The notes below the pieces were generated by a model. It saw only the letters and a list, made by a program, of their open reading frames with translations, was not told where the DNA came from and ran no database searches. A stretch of DNA of 64,000 nucleotides from Cytophagales bacterium. Its GTDB lineage: Bacteria > Bacteroidota > Bacteroidia > Cytophagales > Cyclobacteriaceae. Every line of letters begins with the position of its first letter. The stretch's first letter is position 1. Below, one piece after another: positions 40,854 to 43,183 of this stretch. Both the position numbers and the translations under genes were made by a program. The stretch spans positions 232,821 to 296,820 of the forward strand of contig JAFLBQ010000003.1 of the NCBI GenBank assembly GCA_017303805.1, given 5' to 3'.

Positions 40854-41888
40854 ATGAGCTCGATTGGTAAATGGGAAAAACGGTGGCATCCCTTACGGGA
40901 AGAATGGGTTGTGTATTCGGCCCATCGCAACAACCGGCCGTGGCAAGGTGCCGGAAAGGCAACTCCTAAACCTGCCCCCGATTTTGATGCTAACTGTTAT
41001 TTATGCCCCGGCAATAAGCGGGTGCACGGCAGCATCAATCCGGTTTATAAAGACGTTTTCATTTTTGAGAACGACCACCCGGTGGTTGCCATGCAAGCTC
41101 CGGAAGTACCCGTAACCAATTCGCTCTACCGAAAAGAACGTGCCAGTGGTATTGCAAAAGTGGTATGTTACGATCCACGGCATAACATCACGCTTTCGCA
41201 GATGAAGTTGCCGGAAGTAGTAAAGGTGTTCGATTCGTTTCAACAAGAGATGCTCGCCTTCCAAAAAAATCCGGCTGTGCACTCGGTATTAATTTTTGAA
41301 AACAAAGGCGAAGTGGTGGGGGTAAGCAATCCGCACCCGCATTGCCAGATTTACGCAGTGGACTTTCCGCTTAAACTGGTAAGCCAGCAAATCAGAGTTG
41401 CAGAAGAATATAAACGTGTACATCACAAAAATATCTTTGAAGACATTATTGCCCACGAGCAGCGCGACAAAAGCCGGATTGTAGCCGAAAACGATTTTGC
41501 CATTGCATTCATTCCCTACTTTGCCCGCTATGCATACGAAGTGATGATTTTTCCCAAAGCCGCGCATCAGTCACTCATTACTTTTAGCGAGGCCGAGTTA
41601 CGCTGGTTTACTGCAGTGTTCCACCAAACGGTGCGTAAACTCGATATGAATTTTGAAATGGATTTTCCTTACGTGATGTCGATGATGCAAGCCCCGGTAG
41701 ATGGAACTGATTATCCGGAATTCAGAATGCATTGCTGGCTGCAACCACCCTACCGGCAACCGGGCTTAATAAAATACTTAGCCGGCCCCGAGATTGGTGC
41801 CGGAAATTTTATGGCCGATACCATGCCTGAAGATAAAGCCGCTGAACTTCAGCAGATAAATGTGGCCGCCTATTTATGGGAACGATAG
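40854..41888 (+). CDS. galT: Galactose-1-phosphate uridylyltransferase
   Basis: R.HPL..EW...S.HR..RPWQG, CYLCPGN, FENKG..G.SNPHPHCQ (HPH catalytic His). Confidence 0.9.
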   Translation: MSSIGKWEKRWHPLREEWVVYSAHRNNRPWQGAGKATPKPAPDFDANCYLCPGNKRVHGSINPVYKDVFIFENDHPVVAMQAPEVPVTNSLYRKERASGIAKVVCYDPRHNITLSQMKLPEVVKVFDSFQQEMLAFQKNPAVHSVLIFENKGEVVGVSNPHPHCQIYAVDFPLKLVSQQIRVAEEYKRVHHKNIFEDIIAHEQRDKSRIVAENDFAIAFIPYFARYAYEVMIFPKAAHQSLITFSEAELRWFTAVFHQTVRKLDMNFEMDFPYVMSMMQAPVDGTDYPEFRMHCWLQPPYRQPGLIKYLAGPEIGAGNFMADTMPEDKAAELQQINVAAYLWER

Positions 41889-43183
41889 CCGCATCTGCAT
41901 GGATTGAGGCCTCGGCACCGGGCAGGTTAGATGTAATGGGTGGCATTGCCGATTATTCCGGCTCGCTTGTCTTGCAAATGCCTATTGCACAACGTACAAA
42001 AGTTAAGGTGAGCCTACGCACCGACTACCGCTGCAAAATAAAAAGCTACATCGGCCCAAGCGAACCGTGGACACTCGAATTTGATTTTCGCGATTTGCTC
42101 GCGAATAACCACGTTGATTATACCTATGCTCAAAAGTATCTTTCTCAACGTAAACAAAACTGGGCCGGCTATATTATCGGGTGTGCATTGGTGCTTCAGA
42201 AAGAAAAAGGAGTTGAATTTAAAGGCGCCACTTTTCAGGTTCATTCTGAGGTCCCGCTTGGTAAAGGAGTCTCGTCATCAGCTTCAGTGGAAGTGGCTAC
42301 CATGCGCGCCTTGGCACAGGCTTTTCAACTTTCGTTAACGCACACCGAATTACCCACGCTTGCACAAAGGGTAGAAAACTTTGTGGTTGGCGCTCCGTGC
42401 GGATTGATGGATCAACTGGCCTGTCATTTAGGTGAGCCCGGCAACTTTTTGCCAATTGTTTGTCAACCCGATTTGGTTGAACCGTTGTTACCCATCCCGC
42501 AAGGATTACATTTTGTGGGTATTGATAGTGGTGTAAAGCATGCGGTAAGCGGGCATCAATATGGAAATGTGCGCAGTGCCGCATTTATGGGGTATTCCAT
42601 TCTTGCCTCACATCTGGGCGCTTCAAAAAGAGATCTTGAACACGCATTGCATACAGGCGAACGCAACCATTTACCCTTTCGGGGATATTTGTGTAACATT
42701 TCTGTAAACGAATTTGAAGCTACGCTTCGGCATATTTTACCGGGTACCCTTTCTGGTAAAGAGTTTCTTGAAAAATATGTTTCTATTGACCCGGTAACGA
42801 AAATCAATCCTGATGTTACGTATAACGTTCGCGTTTGTAGCGACCATCCGGTTTATGAAAATAAACGCGTGCAGGATTTTAGGTCATTACTTGATGCCTA
42901 CCCCAACCAAGCTGAACGCGAACAAAAGAAAACGTTAGTAGCGTTGGGTAGCCTGATGCATGCAGCGCACGAAAGTTATTCGCGCTGCGGGCTTGGGTCT
43001 GATCGCACCGATGAAATTGTTGCGCTTGCAAAAAATGCTTCCGGAATTTACGGAGCCAAAATTACCGGTGGTGGCCAGGGCGGCACCGTTTGTTTGCTTA
43101 CTGATACAGCCGGCCAACAAGCAGCTAAAGCGTTGCATCAATCGCTATGTGAAAAATACAACTTGCAGCTTGCCTGGTTTTAA
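41876..43183 (+). CDS. GHMP sugar-1-kinase of plant L-arabinokinase type
   Basis: [67 protein letters not shown].T and [9 protein letters not shown].GGTVC match my recollection of the ARA1 kinase domain rather than GalK (APGRVNLIGEHTDY). Confidence 0.8.
   Translation: [435 protein letters not shown]

Follow-up and report, generated by a model that had tools for sequence, protein, structure and literature searches.

A plant ARA1-type sugar-1-kinase, putatively an L-arabinokinase, is coupled to a distinct clade of GalT-family uridylyltransferases in a Cytophagales genome and its relatives

A galT-kinase operon in a Cytophagales genome

Within the window, a 64,000-nucleotide (nt) stretch of contig JAFLBQ010000003.1 from a Cytophagales bacterium of the family Cyclobacteriaceae, we found a galT gene for a GalT-family uridylyltransferase followed by a gene for a GHMP sugar-1-kinase, and the kinase falls into one clade with the kinase domain of the plant L-arabinokinase ARA1, apart from galactokinase (GalK). 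The transferase belongs to a clade of its own with a remodelled sugar-phosphate pocket. Judged from family placement and genomic context, the pair is probably an L-arabinokinase and an L-arabinose-1-phosphate (L-Ara-1-P) uridylyltransferase, which would feed xylose catabolism through UDP-sugars. The enzyme families themselves are known; what appears to be new is how they are paired, together with the dedicated clade of GalT and the pathway proposed here, and our literature search found no description of a bacterial arabinokinase-GalT pair or of a Leloir-like arabinose route. The operon comprises the following elements:

40854..41888, plus strand: galT, kinase-linked GalT-family HIT hexose/pentose-1-phosphate uridylyltransferase (PF01087, PF02744, TIGR00209)
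41876..43183, plus strand: ARA1-type GHMP sugar-1-kinase, putative L-arabinokinase, stand-alone, 435 amino acids (aa) (PF00288, PF08544)
41876..41888, plus strand: 13-nt overlap of galT and the kinase gene, read directly from the sequence
40780..40853, plus strand: 74-nt intergenic stretch 5' of galT, read from the sequence

The galT product has 344 aa from the ATG at 40854, or 346 aa from an alternative TTG start at 40848. The first-pass annotation of this stretch had claimed a 13-nt overlap of the two genes, and the open reading frame (ORF) coordinates and the junction sequence (TTTATGGGAACGATAG) agree on it, the kinase ATG (41876) lying 13 nt inside galT and the galT TAG stop occupying 41886-41888. 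This overlap probably couples the translation of both genes, which by their arrangement appear to form a two-gene operon and the minimal form of the module. Its promoter region likely lies in the 74-nt stretch at 40780..40853, where TTTG and TAACTTTA elements are present; presumably these resemble the -33/-7 promoter motifs of Bacteroidota. A sigma-70 scan of the region upstream of galT returned no promoter match. A reading of galT and the kinase gene as chance ORFs or pseudogenes was rejected, since both genes are intact and conserved.

The kinase groups with plant ARA1 and not with galactokinase

In Pfam searches the kinase matched PF00288 with 75.9 bits and PF08544 with 32 bits, and the match to the galactokinase-signature family PF10509 was weak or marginal. 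Both an N-terminal PxGxGxxSSA-type motif and the C-terminal GHMP domain are present, as is typical of GHMP members. The protein scored below the cut-off of all five NCBIfam galactokinase models (TIGR00131, 135 bits vs 226.65). The motifs from which the ARA1 assignment had first been made were found in the translation at residues 14-37, 172-180 (GAPCGLMDQ), 324-329 (HPVYEN) and 393-406, and the GalK signature, which reads GRVNLIGEHTDY in E. coli GalK and GRINLIGEHTDY in the GalK of this same genome, has no match in it. That such motifs are characteristic of plant ARA1 was confirmed with the Arabidopsis and Chara proteins, which carry the signature counterpart and VVGAPCGVMDQ.

The galactose-binding signature GR(V/I)NLIGEHTDY is broken in the kinase, where Gly23 and Ile24 replace Glu and His (E. 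coli E34 and H35), while Arg17, Asp26, Tyr27, Asp179 and Tyr229 are retained, R17 and D179 being catalytic. GalK and the bacterial family are each conserved, but for different residues, at 27 positions of the alignment, and at 26 of the 27 plant ARA1 agrees with the bacterial family; these discriminating positions include E34G, H35I, T36A and N30D (E. coli numbering) of the galactose-binding signature. The catalytic Arg28 and Asp174, together with Asp37 and Tyr223 (E. coli numbering), are constant in GalK, the bacterial family and plant ARA1.

Against the Arabidopsis ARA1 domain the window kinase reaches 39.5% identity and 295 bits, vs 24-25% and 72-99 bits against the GalK proteins of E. coli and of its own genome, and about 90 bits against human GALK1. 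Plant L-arabinokinases (about 990 aa) align with more than 90% of its length at 40-43% identity and about 300 bits. In a maximum-likelihood tree of 65 rows with Shimodaira-Hasegawa approximate likelihood-ratio test (SH-aLRT) support, the sampled kinase-linked bacterial copies, both fusion classes described below and plant ARA1 form one clade, separated from GalK by a very long branch with a support of 100; this phylogeny thus places the kinase with ARA1 as had been anticipated, and within the clade it groups with Cyclobacteriaceae, Ohtaekwangia and Chryseotalea. An AlphaFold2 (AF2) model of the kinase (pLDDT 86.8) has the galactokinase fold, with TM-scores of about 0.7-0.8 to GalK structures; the structure-search matches listed for it are known GalK and GALK2 structures, and the ARA1-type structure 9ulx is not among the matches listed. 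No paper listing the galactose contacts of human GALK1 was found in our literature search. Homologues of the kinase number in the thousands.

Its place in the ARA1 clade and its scores below the galactokinase cut-offs argue that the protein is no galactokinase, and we infer an ARA1-type sugar-1-kinase, putatively an L-arabinokinase. An alternative is a second Leloir pair of the galactose type, in which GalT would receive the product of a divergent galactokinase or of a kinase acting on some other galacto-configured sugar, D-fucose for example. In its favour, the best NCBIfam matches of the kinase are galactokinase models, PF10509 is weakly matched and some JGI records call homologues 'galactokinase'; the replacement of the signature Glu-His by Gly-Ile, as in ARA1, speaks against it, and further evidence on both sides comes from gene content and co-occurrence.

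The linked GalT forms its own clade and has an altered substrate pocket

The window GalT scored 252 bits against TIGR00209 (cut-off 102) and 276 bits against the PRK11720 equivalog, whose cut-off of 448 it does not reach, and it is the sole class-I GalT of the genome. Its residues C50, C53, H112, H163, P164, H165 and Q167 correspond to C52, C55, H115, H164, P165, H166 and Q168 of the E. coli enzyme; the zinc ligands, the HPH nucleophile and Gln167 are conserved, and the structural iron site is degenerate. The glucose-1-phosphate (Glc-1-P) site comprises eight residues, which in human GALT are N173, Q188, K334, F335, V337, Y339, E340 and Q346 (PMC5081055) and for which we took N153, Q168, K311, F312, V314, Y316, E317 and Q323 as the E. 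coli equivalents. The window protein retains the N, Q168, K and E of this pocket, and the other four positions are replaced (V314 by A312, Y316 by P314, Q323 by M322 and F312 by Y310). The replacements V314A, Y316P and Q323M/L recur in 29/29 members of the GalT clade, and F312 is Tyr in 17 of the 29. A pocket replaced around intact catalytic residues is the pattern expected of a changed sugar-phosphate specificity with unchanged chemistry, and it suggests that the kinase-linked GalT is a dedicated, specialised partner.

The linked and fused GalT proteins form a clade of their own vs canonical GalT (support 100), and the branching inside it broadly parallels the kinase tree. The same division appeared when GalT was searched in 50 kinase-bearing genomes, the hits falling into a canonical class of about 470-550 bits and a kinase-linked class of about 245-295 bits. 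Canonical copies are 48-56% identical to E. coli GalT and stand beside a canonical GalK in at least nine genomes. Identity of the window GalT to the E. coli enzyme is 31%, and to the canonical GalT of the nearest relative 34%, vs 47-48% to linked GalT proteins from other phyla.

In an evenly drawn sample of 301 genomes of the phylum, 73 had a GalT-family match. Besides the window copy, a single one (genome G128; 364 bits, 48% identity) scored high, and there the kinase lies about 1.2 kb away; the remaining 71 matches reached at most 247 bits and at most 39% identity, in genomes that have no kinase. The linked GalT type is thus confined to kinase-bearing genomes in this sample.

Kinase and GalT are coupled across lineages, with fusions and a recurrent third partner

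We compared 80 related loci (designated L), 74 of which had sequence enough to judge the position of GalT. In 58 of these 74, galT lies upstream of the kinase gene on the same strand, and in 43 it is directly adjacent, ending no more than 150 nt from the kinase start. Natural fusions with an N-terminal GalT and a C-terminal kinase (750-850 aa) occur at three separate places on both the kinase and the GalT trees. These fusions, the dedicated GalT clade and the conserved adjacency support the coupling that had been proposed from the window alone.

A divergent gene of the inositol monophosphatase (IMPase) family recurs as a third partner. It was found between GalT and the kinase in 11 loci (L016, L017, L023, L026, L045, L055, L058, L080, L081, L083 and L084) and, in seven further loci in which no GalT was in view, immediately upstream of the kinase; fusions of an N-terminal IMPase to a C-terminal kinase (P0121, P0124, P0142, P0160 and P0207) occupy three places on the tree. 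The IMPase-like protein has about 339 aa with intact DPIDGT-type metal-binding motifs, and no solved structure matched it meaningfully. Fusing a kinase with a phosphatase would be sensible only if the phosphatase acts on another sugar phosphate. In the metagenome contigs L100 and L101 (P0148, from a protein cluster that NCBI labels Gemmataceae), a PGM/PMM-family phosphomutase gene comes 24 nt after the GalT-kinase fusion, and next a gene for a 1278-aa member of glycoside hydrolase family 127 (GH127); this mutase might handle a pentose-1-phosphate instead of a phosphatase.

Neighbouring genes in relatives point to L-arabinose

The genes around the module in other lineages concern pentoses. Loci of Chitinophagaceae have the order SSF-xylB-like-GalT-kinase, with xylA in some, and one of the compared loci (L076) is a xylan-type polysaccharide utilization locus (PUL) that reads LacI, SusC, SusD, xylB, galT, kinase, xylA, SSF, GH3, GH3, uxuA and uxaC. 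In Pyrinomonadaceae the order is ABC transporter-GalT-IMPase-kinase-GalE-XylA-like, and galE adjoins the module in Acidobacteriota relatives; galM is also among the module neighbours in relatives. A GH51 alpha-L-arabinofuranosidase gene lies near the module in L017, L023, L084, L100 and L101, and around the Gemmataceae-type fusion of the last two it stands divergently upstream, with the GH127 beta-L-arabinofuranosidase gene two genes downstream. Galactosidase families were absent from the recurrent neighbour clusters of the module. Taken together, the GH51, GH127, xylA, xylB and pentose-transporter neighbours support L-arabinose as the predicted sugar of the module.

The xylose genes and xylan PULs around the module in several lineages would also fit a D-xylose 1-kinase, which would phosphorylate D-xylose at C1 for conversion by GalT into UDP-xylose (UDP-Xyl) as a xylose salvage, and the GalK of Solitalea canadensis is described as promiscuously phosphorylating C1 of xylose in vitro (Shi et al. 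2022, as cited in PMC11267548). We consider this highly improbable: the GH51 and GH127 neighbours release arabinose, not xylose, the kinase keeps the residues of ARA1, whose substrate is the C4 epimer, XylA is nearly always present in carriers, and the exclusion described in the next section concerns AraA, not XylA.

Carriers have a separate galactokinase and lack AraA

Co-occurrence was counted in the genomes behind the 80 fetched loci, as the evenly drawn 301-genome sample, with its 3 carriers, offered too few. Canonical GalK is present in 47 of 50 kinase-bearing genomes, thirteen of which have a canonical-type GalT too, next to GalK in at least nine. Carriers that already own a canonical GalK disfavour an ordinary or divergent galactokinase; the reading as the ordinary galactokinase of a gal operon was rejected on this count, and a divergent galactokinase, which the first-pass annotation had kept as its fallback, is disfavoured by it as well. 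One of the compared loci, L065, also holds a canonical GalK itself.

The same counts bear on a second galactose-type Leloir pair, as do the neighbours of the module, which are arabinofuranosidase and xylose genes, with no galactosidase family among the recurrent clusters. On the other side, the window GalT is the only GalT of a genome that has a canonical GalK, and at L099 canonical GalK and GalM stand in one same-strand run with a GalT-kinase fusion (GalK-GalM-SSF-FGGY-[GalT-kinase]-XylA). We regard a galactose-type pair as improbable; a dual role of the single GalT that includes galactose-1-phosphate (Gal-1-P) is a serious rival.

Textbook bacterial L-arabinose catabolism proceeds through the isomerase route (AraA, AraB and AraD) or through oxidative routes. 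AraA was found in 0 of 45 genomes that have both the kinase and GalT, the window's genome included, and in exactly five genomes with the kinase and no GalT, which belong to Emticicia or are Emticicia-like (Fisher p = 2.6e-6, kinship ignored). In a sample of Chitinophagaceae, AraA was present in 88 of 201 genomes (44%) overall vs 0 of 7 carriers (p = 0.016, kinship again ignored). By comparison, 50 of 51 carriers have XylA. With 3 carriers among the 301 genomes of the phylum sample and 0 among the 8 other genomes of the window's family, the module is rare and patchy.

Sugar genes of the window's own genome

The genome has a canonical GalK on contig 10 (128189..129313; 313 bits; locus L004, 8175..9335), the gene lying downstream of GH5-like and GH43 genes with no GalT beside it. 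A canonical GalK-GalT pair is retained in the closest relative (G301), which suggests that the canonical GalT was lost from this genome. The genome returned no tblastn match to the AraA, AraB or AraD of E. coli and no match to PF02610. The genome also holds xylB-xylA, galM, one bona fide galE, GH51, GH43 and two GH127 genes, of which the following are in the window:

15341..16369, minus strand: galE (UDP-glucose 4-epimerase), candidate UDP-L-arabinose/UDP-Xyl epimerase (TIGR01179, 386 bits vs cut-off 262)
31223..33202, plus strand: GH127-family (beta-L-arabinofuranosidase family) gene, first of a tandem pair (PF07944, PF20736, PF20737)
33224..35572, plus strand: GH127-family gene, second of the tandem pair (PF07944, PF20736, PF20620)

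A GalE-type epimerase had been invoked by the first-pass annotation, and this galE supplies it: the product is 43% identical to E. coli GalE and is the sole high-scoring GalE of the genome. It lies about 24.5 kb upstream of galT and the kinase gene, and galM is on another contig; only kinase and transferase share an operon. The GH127 pair lies 5-9 kb upstream of galT, outside the operon, between carB and dapF. As dapF comes straight after carB in several close relatives (L006, L008 and L014), the pair has the look of an insertion in this lineage. The second GH127 protein is 43% identical to the GH127 near the GalT-kinase fusion of L100, and the window GH127 genes are possibly linked in function to galT and the kinase.

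A proposed route from L-arabinose to xylose

The observations above can be arranged into a Leloir-like scheme in which the kinase would phosphorylate L-arabinopyranose with ATP at C1 to beta-L-Ara-1-P. GalT, by a ping-pong mechanism with a His-UMP intermediate, would then convert L-Ara-1-P and UDP-Xyl into UDP-L-arabinose (UDP-L-Ara) and xylose-1-phosphate (Xyl-1-P), where UDP-glucose could prime the pool, and GalE would interconvert UDP-L-Ara and UDP-Xyl and so regenerate the donor. Such interconversion is documented for bifunctional plant UDP-glucose 4-epimerases (UGEs) (PMC5897480). With UDP-Xyl as the donor the cycle would close as the Leloir pathway does, with L-Ara + ATP giving Xyl-1-P + ADP as the net reaction. 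Xyl-1-P would be turned into xylose by the IMPase-like partner where it is present elsewhere, and xylose into xylulose-5-phosphate by XylA and XylB, both of which are encoded in this genome; the module would thereby stand in for the araA, araB and araD lacking here. The UDP-Xyl cycle would be the only stoichiometrically closed use of a GalT-type exchange on a pentose, and it would give the phosphatase partner a role. L-arabinose as substrate, UDP-Xyl as donor, the action of GalE on UDP-pentoses and the fate of Xyl-1-P are all put forward here as predictions from homology and gene context. As a complete catabolic cycle, a "pentose Leloir" pathway for L-arabinose that replaces AraBAD in patchy lineages of Bacteroidota, Acidobacteriota, Planctomycetota and others, the scheme is tentative, and our confidence in it falls a little short of even.

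Several points weigh against the scheme. The operon of this genome has no phosphatase, transporter, xylA/B or glycosidase gene and lies between secA/SPOR genes and unrelated convergent genes, and neither tblastn nor a family HMM found an IMPase-like homologue in the genome, so the step from Xyl-1-P to xylose is left here with no candidate. At L100 and L101 the adjoining gene encodes a PGM/PMM-type mutase and no phosphatase, which the simple scheme leaves unexplained. The galE gene belongs to a polysaccharide-synthesis cluster and is equally compatible with an anabolic use, and GalT, as the sole GalT of a genome with canonical GalK, may also, or mainly, handle Gal-1-P. The AraA background in the window's own order is only 15%, which makes the exclusion signal weak there. 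The route would cost two ATP per pentose vs one for AraBAD, and our literature search found no biochemical data on any bacterial member of the family.

The absence of a phosphatase candidate here keeps an anabolic supply of UDP-pentoses a serious rival, in which free L-arabinose would be salvaged into UDP-L-Ara, and through GalE into UDP-Xyl, for surface glycans with no flow into central metabolism. Plant ARA1 serves such a route (PMC5897480), the window galE stands within a surface-polysaccharide cluster, and the galT-kinase operon has no catabolic neighbours here. Elsewhere, however, the module sits in operons and PULs with xylB, xylA, sugar importers and arabinofuranosidase genes, not with glycosyltransferases; salvage does not predict mutual exclusion with AraA, and a recurrent phosphatase partner and phosphatase fusions make little sense for a pure activation. 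We therefore judge salvage alone to be unlikely. The first-pass annotation had worded its proposal as a salvage route: its core, a kinase and GalT acting on L-arabinose, finds support in comparative genomics, but the evidence favours catabolism of L-arabinose to xylose over the salvage wording.

Relation to known systems

Plant ARA1 (EC 2.7.1.46; Arabidopsis ARA1, rice CAP1) is a documented L-arabinokinase (PMC5897480). Its C-terminal GHMP domain is of the same clade and has the same GAPCG.MDQ motif and sugar-1-kinase fold, but the plant proteins (948-1062 aa) carry an additional N-terminal glycosyltransferase-like domain of about 500 aa, whereas the window kinase (435 aa) consists of the kinase domain only. 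The next enzyme differs as well, being a UTP-dependent UDP-sugar pyrophosphorylase in plants (PMC5897480) and a GalT-type transferase here. In the kinase tree plant ARA1 nests inside the bacterial diversity, beside a subclade of Acidobacteriota/Planctomycetota type, and the window kinase is not specially close to plants. Such nesting suggests a gene transfer of ancient date, with bacteria on one side and the green lineage or other eukaryotes on the other. That the bacterial clade gave rise to the plant ARA1 kinase domain, or was acquired from it, is a proposition that we make jointly with the full catabolic cycle, and the two together are about as doubtful as they are credible, leaning slightly to doubt. 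The nearest neighbours of plant ARA1 (P0127, P0135, P0149, P0188, P0209 and P0224) are proteins of 786-1120 aa from metagenomes and MMETSP transcriptomes.

The closest solved structure is 'AbGHMP' (PDB 9ulx/9uly; 498 aa), which belongs to the same ARA1-type family (E = 6e-101, 342 bits, residues 9-409). It differs in its subclade, which is of Acidobacteriota/Planctomycetota type, with about 60% identity to members. Our literature search found no paper on 9ulx/9uly 'AbGHMP', and the deposited, apparently unpublished structure implies that others are at work on the family.

With the Leloir pathway (GalM, GalK, GalT and GalE; the E. coli gal operon) the module shares enzyme families, the coupling of kinase and transferase and the GalT catalytic residues. 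L-arabinose is the C4 epimer of D-xylose, as D-galactose is of D-glucose. The Leloir pathway differs in its GalK, which is not of the ARA1 type, in its canonical GalT clade and pocket, and in using phosphoglucomutase rather than a phosphatase with XylA/XylB. Unlike in the E. coli gal operon, galE and galM are outside the operon here, and carriers usually keep a separate canonical GalK. The AraA/AraB/AraD route and the oxidative Weimberg/Dahms-type routes have the role proposed here, bringing L-arabinose into central metabolism, through entirely different chemistry and enzyme families; the arabinose genes described in PMC5507952 are oxidative only.

The nearest published bacterial precedent that we found is the 'UDP-xylose salvage' of Solitalea canadensis with ScGalK and ScGPUT (Shi et al. 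2022, Green Chem; PMC11267548), in which a sugar-1-kinase and a uridylyltransferase from a member of Bacteroidota likewise convert a pentose into a UDP-pentose. That system pairs a galactokinase promiscuous in vitro with a UTP-dependent glucose-1-phosphate uridyltransferase of the pyrophosphorylase type, not a HIT-family GalT; its substrate is D-xylose, with no mention of arabinose, and its engineered fusion has about 70 kDa vs 750-850 aa in the natural fusions. On the grounds of the UTP-dependent enzyme and the lack of any mention of arabinose, it was rejected as the same system.

L-arabinose is among the most abundant pentoses of plant biomass. If the proposed pathway is true, it would add a nucleotide-sugar route in which L-arabinose is epimerised to D-xylose with Leloir-type parts, and it would explain arabinose use by many soil and water bacteria that have arabinofuranosidases and no araA. 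The automatic labels 'galactokinase' and 'Gal-1-P uridylyltransferase' on thousands of genes would be corrected, and compact enzyme pairs, natural fusions included, would become available for the production of UDP-L-arabinose and UDP-xylose. The finding is also relevant to where plant ARA1 came from. The hypothesis lends itself to a direct test on two or three recombinant enzymes and in carriers that can be cultured, among them Chryseotalea sanaruensis Ys and Rhodocytophaga aerolata KACC 12507.

Other genes of the window and variants of the module

Upstream of galT and on its strand lie carB, the two tandem GH127 genes, dapF, secA and a SPOR-domain gene, and two convergent genes follow the kinase. 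These and the polysaccharide cluster have the following positions:

43180..47083, minus strand: two convergent genes, for a DUF7133/cytochrome c protein and a 3-keto-disaccharide hydrolase/PA14 protein, 655 aa each
12844..18654, minus strand: surface-polysaccharide cluster of rmlB, rmlC, rmlA, galE, a TviB-like NDP-sugar dehydrogenase and a TviC-like epimerase

Tail to tail, the first convergent gene and the kinase gene overlap in their stop codons at 43180-43183, and the convergent pair is syntenic with galT and the kinase gene in many Cyclobacteriaceae-like loci. Near the polysaccharide cluster, at 9610..12786, are a WecA-like transferase and a sugar aminotransferase, with pheS in between. 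The GC content drops to 0.405 at 20001..22000, vs about 0.47-0.49 around it.

Two further arrangements were seen among the compared loci. In Emticicia and relatives (L037, L054, L059, L060 and L063) the kinase gene comes after those for a Gfo/Idh/MocA oxidoreductase, an MFS transporter and a thiolase, and these genomes have AraA and no GalT anywhere; here the same kinase is wired differently. In loci of Chitinophagaceae type the gene directly after the kinase, or after XylA in L099, encodes a lipoprotein-like Amidohydro_3 protein of about 570 aa (L030, L031, L034, L035, L038, L039, L047, L048, L061, L078 and L099 in all), a conservation that may be synteny only.

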